DNA of 64,000 bases from Gigantopelta aegis. Its lineage: Eukaryota. Under the pieces are notes generated by a model. That model was not told the DNA's origin and made no database searches. It worked only from the letters and a program-made list of their open reading frames with translations. Shown in pieces: positions 16,258 to 43,512 of the stretch (within the stretch, counting starts at the first letter, position 1; every line of letters begins with the position of its first letter). The position numbers and the translations under genes are program-made. The DNA lies in assembly GCF_016097555.1 (NCBI RefSeq), contig NC_054701.1, forward strand, positions 67,224,366 through 67,288,365, in the 5' to 3' direction.

Positions 16258-16545
16258 GTATCCAGTAACAAAGAAGGAAGGAGATGTTTTATTTAACGAT
16301 AAAGTCAACACATTTTATTTACGGTTATATGGCGTCAGACATATGGTTAAGGAACACACAGATATTGAGAGAGGAAACCCGCTGTTGCCACTTCATGGGC
16401 TAGTCTTTTCGATTAGCAGCAAAGGCCCTTTTATTTGCACCATCCCACATACAGGATAGTACATACCACGGCCTTTGTTACACCAGCTGTGGAGCACTGG
16501 CTGGAATGAGAAATAGCCCAATGAGCCCACCGACGTGTTTTTTTG
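16258..16545 (-). repeat. tRNA-derived SINE, family A, reverse orientation
   Basis: The tail motif gaaggaaatgttttatttaacga..ggcgtcagacatatggttaagga comes first. The body matches the + copies at 28905 and 43204. Confidence 0.7.
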
Positions 16546-27454: not shown

Positions 27455-27840
27455 ATGATGTGGCGTCGTGGCAGGCCATCGGTCTACAGGCTGGTAGGTA
27501 CTGGGTTCGGATCCCAGTCGAGGCATGGGATTTTTAATCCAGATACCGACTCCAAACCCTGAGTGAGTGCTCCGCAAGGCTCAATGGGTAGGTGTAAACC
27601 ACTTGCACCGACCAGTGATCCATAACTGGTTCAACAAAGGCCATGGTTTGTGCTATCCTGCCTGTGGGAAGCGCAAATAAAAGATCCCTTGCTGCCAATC
27701 GGAAGAGTAGCCCATGTAGTGGCGACAGCGGGTTTCCTCTCAAAATCTGTGTGGTCCATAACCATATGTCTGACGCCATATAACCTTAAATAAAATGTGT
27801 TGAGTGCATCGTTAAATAAAACATTTCTTTCTTTTTCTTT
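27455..27840 (+). repeat. tRNA-derived SINE, family B, in MVP intron 1
   Basis: Head ggctggtaggtactgggttcggatcccagtcgaggc. Body is shared with family A. The tail ends ..gttaaataaaacatttctttctttttctttctag. Confidence 0.75.
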
Positions 27841-28904: not shown

Positions 28905-29240
28905 GTGGGGCAGGACGTAGCCCAGTGGTAAAGCGTTCACTTGCTGCACAGTCGGTCTAGGATCGATCCCCATCGGTGGACTCATTGGGCTATTTCTTGT
29001 TCCAGCCAGTGCTCCACAACTGGTGTAACAAAGACCGTGGTATGTACTATGATGTCTGTGGGATGGTGCATATAAAATATCCCTTGCTGCTAATTGAAAA
29101 GAGTAGCCTATGAAGTGGTGACAGTGGGTTTCCTCTCTATATATCTCTGTGGTCTTTAATCATATGTCTGACGCCATATAACTGTAAATAAAATGTGTTG
29201 AGTGCGTTGTTAAATAAAACATTTCCTTCCTTCGTTCCCT
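28905..29240 (+). repeat. tRNA-derived SINE, family A, full length, ending 23 nt before MVP exon 2
   Basis: tRNA-like head gggcaggacgtagcccagtggtaaagcg..ggatcgatcccc carries A-box-like and B-box-like blocks. Tail ..gcgttgttaaataaaacatttccttcc. Confidence 0.8.
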
Positions 29241-33548: not shown

Positions 33549-34402
33549 GCAAGTCGTGTTTTTAGCGGACGTATGTACTAATGAATTTGAAAGATAAATA
33601 TACAACTGTGTGTTACTTTTATTCTGCTAATTGTGACCCCGTAATTGCTTTTAGAATAGTATAATTTTGATAATGAAATGCATGTTAATAATTACAATGC
33701 AGATTTGATGAAAAATATTTAGAAAATTATATATTATAAAAACTAATTCAATCTTAATTTTATTCCACATTATTTTACTTTAAAATATGCATTAAAATCA
33801 TGTATTTGATATTTTTAAAAAAAGAGTAATTTATTGTATTTTTGACATGCAATTCAGTACAAAACGTTGATGGTATTGTCATATTTTCCTCTGGTGCATC
33901 AAAGATATTCAGTGGTATTTACTGAAAATGCAAACAGACCCCTTGCTGCTGTTCATGTGACGTGGCTGGTCTGGTGACAAGAGGCTTTTTCTTTCCTTCT
34001 CTAGACCCAGTGTCGAAATAACTCTAAACAAAATAGCCTCAGTTTAAAATGTAGGCCTTCTGGACCCAAGCTTATAAAACGTGAGTCCAGACTCGATTTC
34101 TAATGAAGTCGCACACATTCATTTTGTCTGGGGGTGTAATGACATTAGTGTCACACTTAGTCTCGAGTCTAGACTCTTAATTGTTTTATAAGCACTGTTA
34201 AACACCATTCCTGTTCATTGTTCCTGGCAGTTACTATATAATGTATTAAACATGTGTTTGCAAGGAGAGAAGTCCTTCTTTCTGATGTCAAGGGAGAAGT
34301 TGGAAAAGGGAATTCAGAATGTGTACTATAATGCACTATTATGCACTATTGTGCACTATTAGGTACTATAATAAGCTGTAATGTACTAATGCATATTTTC
34401 AG

Positions 34403-34537
34403 GGAGAGAAGTCATTCTTTCTGATGCCAGGGGAGAAGCTGGAAAAGGGAATTCAGAACGTGTACATCCTGGGAGAGGACGAGGGACTTATCCTCCGCGC
34501 CACTGAGACGTTCAAGGAGAAGGATGTCGGGGAAAAG
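34403..34537 (+). CDS. MVP: MVP exon 6. Encodes [45 protein letters not shown]
   Basis: Acceptor gcatattttcag| at 34401-02. Donor AAG|gtaaaa at 34538. Aligns with human [33 protein letters not shown]. Confidence 0.9.
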
Positions 34538-34552
34538 GTAAAAATGGTTATA

Positions 34553-35500
34553 AACATAACACTACACACGTCAGGGGTGTAGACTGGGTGCTGGGGGGGG
34601 GGGTTTGGACGAACATATCCAGTCATACACATAACACACACATCAGGGGTGTAGACTGGGTGCTGGGGGGGGGGGTAGACTGGGTGCTGGGGGGGGGGGG
34701 GGGGTTTGGACGAACATATCCAGTCATACACATAACACTACACACGTCAGGGGTGTAGACTGGGGGGTGGGTGGTGTGTTTGGATGAACATATCCAGTCA
34801 TACACATAACACTACACACATCAGGGGTGTAGACTGGGTGCTGGGGGGGGGGGGGTGGGACGAACATATCCAGTCATACACAAAACACTACACACGTCAG
34901 GGGTGTAGACTGGGGGGTGGGTGGTGGGTTTGGATGAACATATCCACTTTCATACACATAACACTACACACATCAGGGGTGTAGACTGGGGGGCGGGGGG
35001 GGGGGTTTGGACGAACATATCCAGTCATACACACAACACTACACATGTCAGGGGTGTAGACTGGGGGGTGGGTGGTGGGTTTGGATGAACATATCCACTT
35101 TCATACACATAACACTACACATCAGGGGTGTAGACTGAGGGGTGGGAGGGGGGGGTTTGGATGATGAACATATCCACAGTCATAAACATAACACTACACA
35201 CATCAGGGGTGTAGACTGGGGGGTGGGGGGGGGGGTTTGGACGAACATATCCACTTTCATACACATAACACTACACGCATCAGGGGTGTAGACTAGGGGG
35301 GGTTTGGATGAACATATCCAGTCATACACATAACACTACACACATCAGGGGTGTAGACTGGGGGTGGGTGGTGGGTTTGGATGAACATATCCAGTCATAC
35401 ACATAACACTGCACACGTCAGGGGTGTAGACTGGGGGGTGGGTTGGTGTTTTTGGATGAACATTATACACATACACATAACACTACAGACATCAGGGATG
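34553..35500. repeat. Minisatellite in MVP intron 6. About 12 copies of an approximately 78-bp unit with a G-rich core (ggggtgtagactggggggtgggtggtgggtttgg)
   Basis: Successive units ..acataacactacacacgtcaggggtgtagactgggg..tttggacgaacatatccagtcatac.. read directly. ORFs 34453-34984 are artefacts. Confidence 0.9.
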
Positions 35501-36379
35501 ATGGGGAGGTTGGTGGATTTGGATGAATAACACTACAGATATTCTACCACATGATTGAGACAATCCTTTGTGCACATAATGTAATACGGTAAAATTGCGC
35601 AATTAATCATTTGTTGTTTGTGATTTGCGGAAGTCTAGTTTTTGAGTTTCTGATCTTTTGTTTGGGCATTAAATTTAGGACATGATTTACCTGGACATAA
35701 TCAACATAACATATTTTGGACCCAAAGATCAACTGTTTTCGTGAGTGTGCTTTAAAATTATTCAGAGTGCATACATTAAGGAGGAAGAGTTGTCTGCCCT
35801 TTCATGTGAAGTGTCATAGTGATGCTAGTCACACTAAACATGGTAGTGATACAAATATTTTATATGGTCGGTTGTGTTATCACTAACATATATGGGGTGT
35901 CAACATGTCAACCCATTGAAAAAACAATTTTAAAAGCTCGGAAAAAACAAGAGGTGCTTAAATATATTTAAAGGTGAGGATCGGTCCCCTGTAGTGCAGG
36001 GCACATATTAAGTCAATGCTTTTCTTAATGTGCAGGGCGAGTTGCTTCCCTCTATTTAGCAAATTTAAAATGGTGGGCAAATGTCTTATGTTGTTGTTGG
36101 AAGATTTATTTTGTTAATAATGATGCAAGTACATCAACTGGGATTTAGTGAGTATGATAGGTCATACATTTTTGGTTTGTGTGTCCATTTGTTGCACTAT
36201 TTCGGTTGAGAAATGGTTGAAACATGGTGCCACATGTTTTGAATGCCAGCTATGTAGAGGATATGTAAGAATATTCGGACGTAGAAAGAACCACACTTTC
36301 GATGTCCGTTCAGACTAGGTCCCTTGGTCCACTCTGGATCTGCCTCTGAGCAGTAAGATTCCATTGTGTTTGTTAACAG

Positions 36380-38514: not shown

Positions 38515-39209
38515 GTAGGTCATTCCGTTTTGCAAGCGTCTGAAAAGTGCAAGAGCGATAATTTTGTTTGCAATGTGTACTTTTGCGTAACCCATTTTTC
38601 ATTGTGCTATAACTTTTAGGAGTCTATTGGTAATTTAAAGCACTTGCTTGATGCTCGGTCGGTTTGGGATCGATTCTCGTTTGTAGGCCCATTGGGCTGT
38701 TCCTCGTTCAAGCCAGTGCACCACAAAGGCCATGGTATGTGCTATCCTGTCTGTGGGATGGTGCATATAAAAGATCCCTTGCTGCTAATGGAAACATTCA
38801 GCGAGATTCCTCTCTAAGACTATGTTAAAATTACCAAATGTTTGACATCCAAGAGTTCTAGTGGTGTCATTAAACAAAACAAACTCGAACAGTAACTTTA
38901 GGATATCAATTATATTGTTGTATCAGGTTATGCAAAAGGAAATGTGTTATCTGTAATTTGTTTTGTGTAATCCATAAATGTTTTACACAAATTTCAATTA
39001 TCAAAGACCTGGCTCCATCAATACATACATATATATAATTAACTAAAACGTACACAAAATTGGTCTTGAAACATAATTATTTGCTCTTGTGCAATTTTAT
39101 GTTTGGATGACCAAATATCTAGTTTGAAAATGTGCTGAGAGGAACCATTTCTTTCTATGTATATTTTTTCTCTCTCGCTCCCTCTCCCTCTCCCTCTCCA
39201 ACTCTCTCC

Positions 39210-39320
<111 letters not shown>

Positions 39321-39453
39321 CCTCCTTCCTTCCTATCTTTTTGTACCACCACTACCAACATTGTAGTTCAATTAAGATCACACCAATTTCTTTTATAAAT
39401 AATCTTGTGGATGTTCCTACCAACTGTATGTGACATGTTGTTTGTTATTTCAG

Positions 39454-40622: not shown

Positions 40623-40834
40623 AATTCTGCTAAAATCATCCGAGCTTCCGTGTTCGGCTTTGATGATAAGAACAAGGTGCGCGACCGGTTTATTTTCTCC
40701 CAGAACAGCCTGGTGATCACGAGCATCGACATCCAGTCGGTGGAGCCCGTCGACCAGCGAACCCGCGACTCGCTCATAAAGTCTGTGCAGCTTGCCATCG
40801 AGATCACAACCAACTCGCAGGAAGCTGCTGCCAG
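40623..40834 (+). CDS. MVP: MVP exon 11. Encodes [70 protein letters not shown](R)
   Basis: Acceptor ttcctttcctttcag| at 40621-22. Donor CAG|gtagat at 40835. Aligns with human [50 protein letters not shown]. Confidence 0.9.
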
Positions 40835-41640
40835 GTAGATACCGATTGATATTATACACATGGTATAAAATAAACCATATTATACATATGATATAAAATA
40901 AACAGTATTATACATGATATAAAATAAACAGTATTATACATGATATAAAATAAACCATATTATACATATGATATATAATAAACAGTATTATACATGATAT
41001 AAAATAAACAGTATTATACATGATATGAAATAAACAGTATTATAACATTAATATCACCACCAACTCACAGGAAGCTGCTGCCAGGTAGATACCGATTGAT
41101 ATTATACACATGGTATAAAATAAACCATATTATACATATGATATAAAATAAACAGTATTATACATGATATAAAATAAACAGTATTATACATGATATAAAA
41201 TAAACAGTATTATACATGATATAAAATAAACCATATTATACATATGATATATAATAAACAGTATTATACATGATATAAAATAAACAATATTATACATGAT
41301 ATGAAATAAACAGTATTATAACATTGAGATCACCACTAACTCACAGGAAGCTGCTGCCAGGTAAATACCGATTGATATTATACACATGATATAAAATAAA
41401 CAGTATTATACACGTGATATAAAATAAACAGTACTATAAACATCGAGATCACCACCATCTCACAGGAAGCTGCTGCCAGGTAGATACAGATTGATATTAT
41501 ACTATAAACATTGAGATCACCACCAACTCTACAGCCAGGTAGATAAAAATTGGCATTACACACATGATATAAAATAAACAGTATTATAAACATTGAAATC
41601 ACCACCAAGTCAAATGAAGCTGCTGCCAGGTTGATGTGAC
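40835..41640. repeat. Tandem array in MVP intron 11 that repeats the exon-11 3' end plus the donor site. It is interleaved with a 27-bp minisatellite (atgatataaaataaacagtattataca)
   Basis: Copies of caccaactcacaggaagctgctgccaggtagataccgattgatattatacacatg lie near 41053, 41335, 41455 and, more degenerate, 41510 and 41600. The true junction is at 40805-40850. Confidence 0.85.
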
Positions 41641-41825
41641 AGTATTCAGAACATTCAAGAACTCTGTGTTTAGTCAATAATATCATGAAGGTGATATTGT
41701 TAGTATGCACATTGAGTATCAGCATGCATATTGAGTATAGGGGTATTGGTAAGAAAGTAAGAAATTCTTCATTTAGGCTTTGTACAGCTGCTATTCACAC
41801 ATACCCCAACCTGTATTATCTTGTA

Positions 41826-42040
41826 TTACCAACCTCGGTAGTGTTGTGGTTAAGTCATCGGACATAAGGCTGGTAGGCACTGGGTTCGCAGCCTGGTACC
41901 GGTTCCCACAACTAACAAGTAACCTACTGTTCTGGACAGATAGCTGAATTGTGTGCTCAGGACAGCGTGCTTGAACCTTAATTGGATATGTCCCATTGGG
42001 CTCTTTCTTGTTTCAATATCTGTGTGGTCCTTAACCATAT
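41826..42040 (+). repeat. tRNA-derived SINE, family C, fragment in MVP intron 11
   Basis: ggctggtaggcactgggttcgcagcctggtaccgg..cttgaaccttaattggatatgtcc. Confidence 0.5.
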
Positions 42041-42110
42041 GTCTGATGCCATATAACCGTAAATAAAATGTGTTGAGTGCGTCATTAAATAAAAAATTTC
42101 CTTCCTTCAG

Positions 42111-42354
42111 ACACGAGGCTGAGCGACTGGAGCAGGAGGCGCGCGGTCGTCTGGAGCGCCAGAAGATCAGTGACGAGGCGGAGGCCGAACGCGCCCGCAA
42201 GGAGCTGCTGCTGTTGCAGGCGAACAGCGCCGCTGTCGAGAGCACAGGGCAGGCAAAGGCCGAGGCTCAGTCCCGCGCCGAGGCGTCCAAGATTGAGGGT
42301 GAGGCAGCCGTCGAACAGGCCAAGCTGAAGGCTCAGGCCATGAAGATTGAGGCG
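42111..42354 (+). CDS. MVP: MVP exon 12. Encodes (R)[81 protein letters not shown]
   Basis: Acceptor tttccttccttcag| at 42109-10. Donor GCG|gtaaga at 42355. Aligns with human [83 protein letters not shown]. Confidence 0.9.
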
Positions 42355-42375: not shown

Positions 42376-43127
42376 TACTTTGTTTCTTGGTAACTACCAG
42401 ACAAGACAGATGCCCCATTATATCCATTTGTACCCTGCCTGTTTAGTTTGTTTTATACTTGGTGGTCATGCTTGGTCTTTGTTCTTTCTTGGTAACTACC
42501 AGACAAGACGATGCCCCATTTATATCCATTTGTACCCTGCCTGTTTAGTTTGTTTTATACTTGGTGGTCATGCTTGGTCTTTGTTCTTTCTTGGTAACTA
42601 CCAGACAAGACGATGCCCCATTTATATCCATTTGTACCCTGCCTGTTTAGTTTGTTTTATACTTGGTGGTCATGCTTGGTCTTTGTTCTTTCTTGGTAAC
42701 TACCAGACAAGATGATGCTCCATTTATATCCATTTGTTCCCTGGCTGTTTAGTTTGTTTTATACTTGGTGGTCATGCTTGGTCTTTGTTCTTTCTTGGTA
42801 ACTACCAGACAAGACGATGCCCCATTTATATCCATTTGTACCCTGCCTGTTTAGTTTGTTTTATACTTGGTGGTCATGCTTGGTCTTTGTTCTTTCTTGG
42901 TAACTACCAGACAAGACAGATGCCCCATTTATATCCATTTGTACCCTGCCTGTTTAGTTTGTTTTATACTTGGCGGTCATGCTTGGTCTTTGTTCTTTCT
43001 TGGTAACTACCAGACAAGGCAGATGCCCCATGTATATCCATTTGTACCCTGGCTGTTTAGTTTGTTTTATATTTGGTGGTCATGCTTGGTCTTTGTTCTT
43101 TCTTGGTAACTACCAGACAAGTAACCC
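42376..43127. repeat. Tandem repeat in MVP intron 12: about 7 copies of an approximately 104-bp unit
   Basis: cttggtaactaccagacaagacgatgccccatttatatccatttgtaccctgcctgtttagtttgttttatacttggtggtcatgcttggtctttgttcttt repeats. ORFs 42362-43109 are artefacts. Confidence 0.9.
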
Positions 43128-43206: not shown

Positions 43207-43512
43207 GACGTAGCCCAGTGGTACAGTGCTTGCTCGATGCACGGTCGGTCTGGGATCGATCCCCATTGGTGGGCCCATTGGGCTATTTCGTTTCAGGCAG
43301 TGGTATATCAAAGACTGTGGTATGTACTACCCTGTCTTTGGAATAGTGCATATAAAAGAACCCTTGCTGCTTATTGAAAAGAGTAGCCCATGAAGTGGGG
43401 ACAGCGAGTTTCCTCTCTCAATATCTGTGTGGTCCTTAACCATATGTCTGACACCATATAACCGTAAATAAAATGTGTTGAGTGCATCGTTAAATAAAAC
43501 ATTTCCTTCCTT
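43165..43512 (+). repeat. (G)39 tract followed by a family A SINE that ends 41 nt before MVP exon 13
   Basis: Homopolymer 43165-43203. SINE head gggcaggacgtagcccagtggtacagtgc.. and tail ..catcgttaaataaaacatttccttcc. Confidence 0.8.

Follow-up and report, generated by a model that had tools for sequence, protein, structure and literature searches.

Tandem copies of the exon 11-intron 11 junction form a lineage-specific minisatellite in the major vault protein gene of Gigantopelta aegis

The MVP gene of Gigantopelta aegis and its introns

The stretch of Gigantopelta aegis DNA analyzed here (64 kb, hereafter the window) carries an intact major vault protein (MVP) gene on the + strand, with 13 exons and a 2,589-nt ORF coding for 862 aa. 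Its coding segments were located with tblastn, in which a human MVP sequence served only as a probe, and the splice boundaries were set by eye. The open frame at 40626-40835 matches residues ~595-674 of solved MVP structures (E ~1e-21). Comparison of the full-length proteins gave 85% identity with MVP of Haliotis cracherodii, the best match, 82% with Lottia and 81% with Patella, and the best matches at the level of exon 11 were 85-90% identical.

Coding exon 11 (40623-40834, + strand, 212 nt) starts with NSAKIIR and ends with the AG of a split Arg codon (...GCT GCT GCC AG|gtagat, phase 2). Only this exon and exon 2 end in CAG within the gene. The authentic 5' splice site, GTAGAT (CAG|GTAGAT), lies at 40835-40840 and is overlapped by an in-frame TAG at 40836-40838. 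Intron 11 (40835-42110) is 1,276 nt long and is followed by coding exon 12 (42111-42354), which begins with A CAC GAG. The gene model thus agrees with a preliminary description made from the sequence, which had named this junction exon 11/intron 11: the MVP gene is intact, and the junction closes its 11th coding exon.

The introns of the gene model are GT-AG throughout, with the sole exception of intron 5 (33549-34402), an apparent GC-AG intron whose donor, AAG|GCAAGT, is the only non-GT donor. Besides intron 11, further MVP introns bear minisatellites that adjoin splice sites, on either the donor or the acceptor side. Intron 6 contains, at 34550-35534, ~13 copies of a 75-nt minisatellite with G runs, which starts ~10 nt past the exon-6 donor and does not include it. 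Intron 12 has, at 42380-43094, ~7 copies of a 102-nt tandem repeat starting ~25 nt past the exon-12 donor, the first four of which are 94-96% identical. A long (TC)n or CT-rich microsatellite (39151-39356) lies in intron 8, ~100 nt upstream of exon 9. In intron 5, a 70-nt copy of the acceptor region with the first 63 nt of exon 6 (34257-34326 versus 34396-34465, 90% identical) precedes the real exon 6 by 139 nt, a short tatgcactat-type repeat (34327-34395) lying between the two; it is the acceptor-side counterpart, in the same gene, of the exon-11 donor array described below. Finally, a SINE-like dispersed repeat occupies 41825-42108 in intron 11. Others are found at 27740-27834, 29141-29233, 43409-43512 and 16273-16377, among other places, and no fewer than 13 copies of the repeat's tail, 88-95% identical, lie in the 64 kb. 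The copy in intron 11 ends exactly at the exon 12 acceptor, and its terminal ATTTCCTTCCTTCAG thus supplies the pyrimidine tract and the AG.

Anatomy and history of the intron 11 array

The last 38 nt of exon 11, together with the donor, recur at 41046, 41322, 41441, 41509 and 41591, yielding five decoy donors. The junction 23-mer CAGGAAGCTGCTGCCAGGTAGAT was found five times with at most 3 mismatches (40818, 41068, 41344, 41463 and 41613), with 0 occurrences expected from 100 shuffles. A sixth junction copy (41509-41552) has a 9-nt deletion and was visible in the alignment and in the complete list of CCAG|GT sites, which holds six entries (40834, 41084, 41360, 41479, 41538 and 41629). Homology to the exon opens at CATCGAGATCAC (40796), so that 38-39 nt of coding sequence are repeated, and the aligned copies have in common, from CAT(C/T)GAGATCAC on, 38 nt of exon, the donor and ~24 nt of intron. 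The preliminary description had the exon tail and donor recurring at least four more times, which holds with five extra copies, one of them truncated, but its estimate of ~30 nt for the tail was too short. It had also allowed that the repeat might have been misread; the repeated exon tail was seen in the shuffled-control count, by TRF and in the alignment alike. In-frame translation of four decoy tails still gives I(E/N)ITT(N/I/K)S(Q/N)EAAAR.

The array, at 26% G+C, makes up 801 of the 1,276 bases of intron 11 and consists of six units in the same orientation on the + strand, with TRF periods of 26, 119, 250 and 276. Nested inside it is a 26-nt, AATAAA-containing minisatellite, ACATGATATAAAATAAACAGTATTAT, with 18 copies, all between 40858 and 41587 (0 expected). 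Unit 1 (40796-41045, 250 nt) holds the real 38-nt exon tail, the authentic donor and seven copies of the 26-nt repeat (40858-41043). Unit 2 (41046-41321, 276 nt) comprises a decoy tail, a decoy donor GTAGAT at 41085 and eight repeat copies, and unit 3 (41322-41440, 119 nt) a decoy tail with an ACT AAC variant, a decoy donor GTAAAT at 41361 and two repeat copies. In unit 4 (41441-41508, 68 nt), the decoy tail and a decoy donor GTAGAT at 41480 stand without any 26-nt repeat. Unit 5 (41509-41590, 82 nt) is the one with the 9-nt deletion in its decoy tail, and has a decoy donor GTAGAT at 41539 and one repeat copy. The last unit (41591-41635) is partial and the most diverged, with a decoy tail, a weak decoy donor GTTGAT at 41630 and no repeat copy. 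The remainder of the intron (41636-42110) contains ~190 nt of unique sequence and then the SINE-like repeat. Thus, the minisatellite does not follow every junction copy, contrary to what had been described. A search of intron 11 for structured RNAs of known families and for tRNAs found none.

The same phase-2 intron is present in relatives, where it is short and has a single-copy junction (411 nt in Haliotis, 228 nt in Lottia); three long ENA contigs, L002-L004, likewise have the intron at exactly this place and a single copy of the junction. An intron in this phase-2 position is found in most genomic loci as well, and so it is not a novel one. As the relatives share the position of the intron but hold one copy of the junction, the intron is old and the array lineage specific. 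In one relative (protein match P0007), the ORF runs straight through the junction, indicating that the intron-11 position is absent there or shifted ~12 codons downstream. These comparisons support a gain of 801 nt by intron 11 through local tandem duplications that would have captured the exon-intron junction. The earlier proposal of an expansion by unequal crossing-over that included coding sequence is therefore upheld for the junction-capturing tandem growth, given the single-copy orthologous introns; the crossing-over itself is indistinguishable by sequence from replication slippage or gene conversion.

In the alignment, all five decoys have ACC and TCA where exon 11 has ACA and TCG, suggesting that they probably descend from one founder copy, so that a single capture of coding sequence would suffice, and subsequent amplification may have drawn on the intronic copy rather than on exon sequence. 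Third codon positions at these two sites vary among Haliotis, Lottia and L001-L004, so that either state may be ancestral. Units 1 and 2 have their repeat variants in the same order. Of their differences, 5 substitutions lie in the first 22 nt, while the other 228 nt show just 1 substitution and one 26-nt indel, a clustering with a binomial estimate of ~3e-5. This suggests that the latest exchange took place recently and that its left end fell inside the final 17 nt of the exon or immediately beyond them. One unequal crossover, between the tail of the exon and that of a decoy, was considered as the source of units 1 and 2 and rejected, because unit 2 also differs from unit 3 at 3 sites within its first 22 nt. 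The misfit of this simple model implies that the history must include conversion or lost intermediates.

The sequence past the last copy (gttgatgtgACAGTATTcAgAACATTcaagaact; acagtatt..aacatt) resembles the end of every unit (aaACAGTATTatAaACATT|gagatcac), and the end of unit 6 is probably the original duplication boundary. This resemblance suggests a founding duplication that extended from exon position 40796 to that point of the intron. The copied segment would have comprised ~38 nt of the end of exon 11, the 5' splice site and some 45-80 nt of intron, with its junction at a short stretch of CAT/ACAT homology; the intron itself probably measured no more than a few hundred nt at that time. A 26-nt segment within the unit would then have expanded by slippage. 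This repeat lies between two TATTATA motifs, which would favor such slippage, and unit 4, which has no repeat, looks like the outcome of a deletion between them. Whole units would have been re-amplified and partly homogenized to yield the present six (250, 276, 119, 68, 82 and ~45 nt). The mechanism appears to be ordinary repeat instability that took in a splice junction, and the length of the array is probably polymorphic.

Duplications at the orthologous junction in other taxa

A match to exon 11 (P0001) reads through the donor into a second copy of the exon-tail peptide. In its contig, L001, which is bivalve-like, 76 nt of exon tail and the donor are repeated past a CA-rich spacer (duplication at 780-1012). 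We surveyed 80 metagenome loci encoding exon 11; 27 of them, together with L001-L006, made up a set of 33 genomic loci with the intron present. Loci were collapsed to taxa, and every HSP end was scanned with sliding 20-mers. Fuzzy sliding probes were used in place of TRF alone because TRF missed two-copy cases.

Duplications of the junction were found in four further loci. L014 (200-410 and 900-1310) has two junction copies with a period of 154 and ~60 nt of exon, and also carries the head of exon 12 and its acceptor in triplicate. L017 (247-380) and L028 (248-343) have four and three copies, respectively, with periods of 34-38 and 22 nt of exon, and L032 (218-310) has two copies with a period of 68. 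Over 4.3 kb, L017 and L028 share 99% identity, and one has exactly one unit more than the other, indicating a copy-number polymorphism (4 versus 3). The taxa with duplications are distinct at the level of exon DNA and interspersed with single-copy relatives. L014, L017 and L032 belong to a clade nearest to Logan transcripts and, judging by the JGI sample names, may be gutless-oligochaete metagenomes. The Logan transcripts nearest that clade, L087 and L088, match only the single-copy taxon L010, at 100%.

The intron-11 donor was duplicated in 5 of 23 taxa, compared with 0 of 128 other donor junctions (Fisher p = 5.5e-5, in a post hoc test on an exon-11-centered survey that ignores kinship). When the window and L001, which had been found because of their duplications, were excluded, the proportions were 3/21 and 0/128 (p = 0.0025, likewise post hoc and with kinship ignored). 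Against the two best-matched neighboring donors only (0/34), p was ~0.05. Widening the probes to +45 nt added one purely intronic array and nothing else, and acceptor-side duplications were detected at 4 of 147 junctions, in four different introns.

The events in the window, L001, L014, L017/L028 and L032 differ in unit length and breakpoints. It may be, although we lean against it, that tandem duplication has repeatedly struck the MVP exon-11 donor across lophotrochozoans, with at least five independent events and a cause specific to this junction. Such an effect is plausible, if somewhat doubtful, and unproven. One possible cause would be a mutational hot spot in the conserved ...ACCACCAACTCNCAGGAGGCNGCNGCCAG|GT; another would be tolerance of, or benefit from, extra CAG|GT copies, for instance as self-healing proto-splice sites or as added U1 binding at a weak donor.

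Splicing from reiterated donors

Scored against the donor consensus, the authentic site CAG|GTAGAT matches 7 of 9 positions, and the decoys in order 7, 8, 7, 7 and 6. The sequence of the authentic site is found at three decoys, CAG|GTAAAT at one and CAG|GTTGAT at one; the decoy at 41361 (CAG|GTAAAT) fits the consensus better than the authentic site. The preliminary description had noted that several pseudo 5' splice sites were left in the intron, in keeping with these five, and that all of them would read into stop codons. The latter is true, albeit trivially. Reading through GCC AGG TAG places the stop at 40836-40838 on the authentic donor itself, and therefore any use of a decoy yields a premature stop. 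The exons defined by the decoys would be 462-1,007 nt long, with 9-27 stops each. As predicted from the reading frame, no decoy can make a protein isoform.

Only the first donor yields the conserved EAAAR/K-HE join with exon 12. Among the 120 full-length MVPs listed, the QEAAA motif was found in 114, every one of which goes on to the canonical EAAAR/K-HE join, and the search pattern had no match in the remaining six. From the TAG and the conserved protein join, we infer that splicing to productive mRNA takes place at the first donor (40834|40835). All five decoys would be silent, or their use would give a transcript with the premature TAG that is presumably degraded.

Minisatellites whose first monomer spans an exon-intron boundary have been described in human genes (Borensztajn et al. 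2006, PMC1557585). In intron 7 of human F7 (IVS7), a 37-bp VNTR is present in 5-9 copies and only the most upstream donor is used, in agreement with 5'-to-3' scanning (PMC1557585). The authentic donor is likewise the only one used next to the arrays of LMNB2 (100 bp) and PDGF intron 4 (81 bp) (PMC1557585). In contrast, two proximal pseudo-sites are used beside the authentic donor in IFI6 (6-16) intron 2 and CBS intron 13, according to Turri 1995 and others as cited in PMC1557585. Our searches for literature on MVP and minisatellites found no paper.

By its anatomy, the MVP array appears to belong to this recognized class, as a boundary-spanning minisatellite of the F7 IVS7 type; the class itself is already known from human genes. 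Its first unit holds the exon end and the authentic donor, units 2-6 follow head to tail, and the pseudo-donors are identical or nearly so to the authentic donor, as in F7, LMNB2 and PDGF, all within an intron of an otherwise ordinary gene. However, the exon part is 38 nt in MVP and 4 nt in F7. Nesting of a second minisatellite, of 26 nt, makes the MVP units long and uneven in size (68-276 nt), and the copies are not strictly identical but partly decayed along a visible gradient. What appears to distinguish the MVP case is thus the long exon part, the nested two-level repeat, the decay gradient and the mollusc host. In IFI6 and CBS the reiterated donors were also made by a boundary-spanning minisatellite, but use of a decoy in MVP would retain the TAG and add at least 250 nt, whereas proximal pseudo-sites are used in those two genes. 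The 12-nt unit of IFI6 adds small in-frame insertions. The proto-splice-site logic of tandem duplication has been discussed for Drosophila in a model that concerns new introns (PMC2891723). As in that model, a duplicated MAG|GT segment in MVP creates a spliceable interval of the length of the duplication, with CCAG|GT sites flanking intervals equal to the repeat period, and a coding copy becomes intronic. Unlike in the model, the MVP intron pre-existed at a conserved position, and duplication enlarged it, neither creating nor moving an intron.

Several other accounts of the array were considered. The CAG|GT copies might be proto-splice sites that serve as both acceptor and donor, such that splicing from a donor to the next CAG removes one unit and regenerates the donor in a self-healing (recursive or ratchet) array, and the resulting tolerance would account for the accumulation of copies at the MVP junction in many lineages. 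Every copy does retain ...GCTGCTGCCAG|GT, exon 11 is one of the two MVP exons ending in CAG, its last bases, GCTGCTGCC, are moderately pyrimidine-rich on direct reading, and unit 3 has an ACTAAC 21 nt upstream of its CAG; the proto-splice-site logic is established in PMC2891723, and junction duplication recurs at the MVP exon-11 donor in other taxa. Nevertheless, with AG|GT present, the tract before the CAG is only ~50% pyrimidine and is broken by AGGAAG, an earlier AG (cacAG|gaag) would leave a 14-nt frameshifting remnant, and known recursive sites sit in very long introns while intron 11 has 1,276 nt, all of which make this account quite improbable. Regulated use of the decoys, by which a fraction of MVP pre-mRNA would give a premature-stop isoform and its unproductive splicing and decay would control dosage, might be expected from the four decoys that equal or beat the authentic site (7-8 of 9 consensus positions) and from the constitutive use of proximal pseudo-sites reported for IFI6 and CBS by the work cited in PMC1557585. 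However, Haliotis, Lottia and other relatives lack the array, and hence it is not a conserved regulatory device. Its units are decaying, as seen from the deletion in unit 5 and the GTTGAT of unit 6, and exons of the lengths that the decoys define are long for exon definition. We therefore consider regulated use unlikely.

Binding of U1 can suppress premature cleavage and polyadenylation, a function known as U1 telescripting. The donor copies might persist as U1-binding sites with this role at the AATAAA motifs of the 26-nt repeat, of which the array holds 18. Intron 11 has 15.7 AATAAA per kb, compared with 0-4.2 per kb in the other MVP introns, and in each of the two large units a single donor accompanies 7-8 AATAAA. 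That support is wholly circumstantial, every AATAAA is within ~750 nt of the authentic donor by itself, and analogous duplications in other taxa have no AATAAA repeats, so that a telescripting role appears very improbable. As the MVP introns are rich in dispersed repeats, a transposable element, the capture of a gene fragment or an assembly artefact might also be invoked in place of local duplication. The copies are nonetheless direct, tandem, head to tail and contiguous with the source exon. Neither the 26-mer (outside intron 11) nor the junction 23-mer has another copy in the 64-kb window, the 26-mer occurs in none of 86 related loci, and no terminal or flanking inverted repeats were found around the array; gene-fragment capture would call for a mobile element with terminal repeats and other genomic copies. 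The graded, unit-specific substitutions and indels are not expected from collapsed or misjoined reads. An element or artefact is thus extremely unlikely.

We consider it likely, taking the whole account together, that the array is a lineage-specific, boundary-spanning minisatellite, most likely a neutral outcome of local repeat instability, with the first donor being the productive one. Pure neutrality leaves the repeated hits on the same junction in other taxa unaccounted for.

The locus provides a clean invertebrate case of an intron whose length would have tripled as its own 5' junction was copied, and the near-identical donors of the array, one of which is stronger than the authentic site, form a natural series of competitors. 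Annotation is affected too, since gene prediction and read alignment can put the junction on the wrong copy. If the recurrence in other molluscs and annelid-like taxa is true, these loci would be replicated natural experiments on the choice among reiterated 5' splice sites outside mammals, and MVP intron 11 would inform why some exon-intron junctions are prone to duplication.
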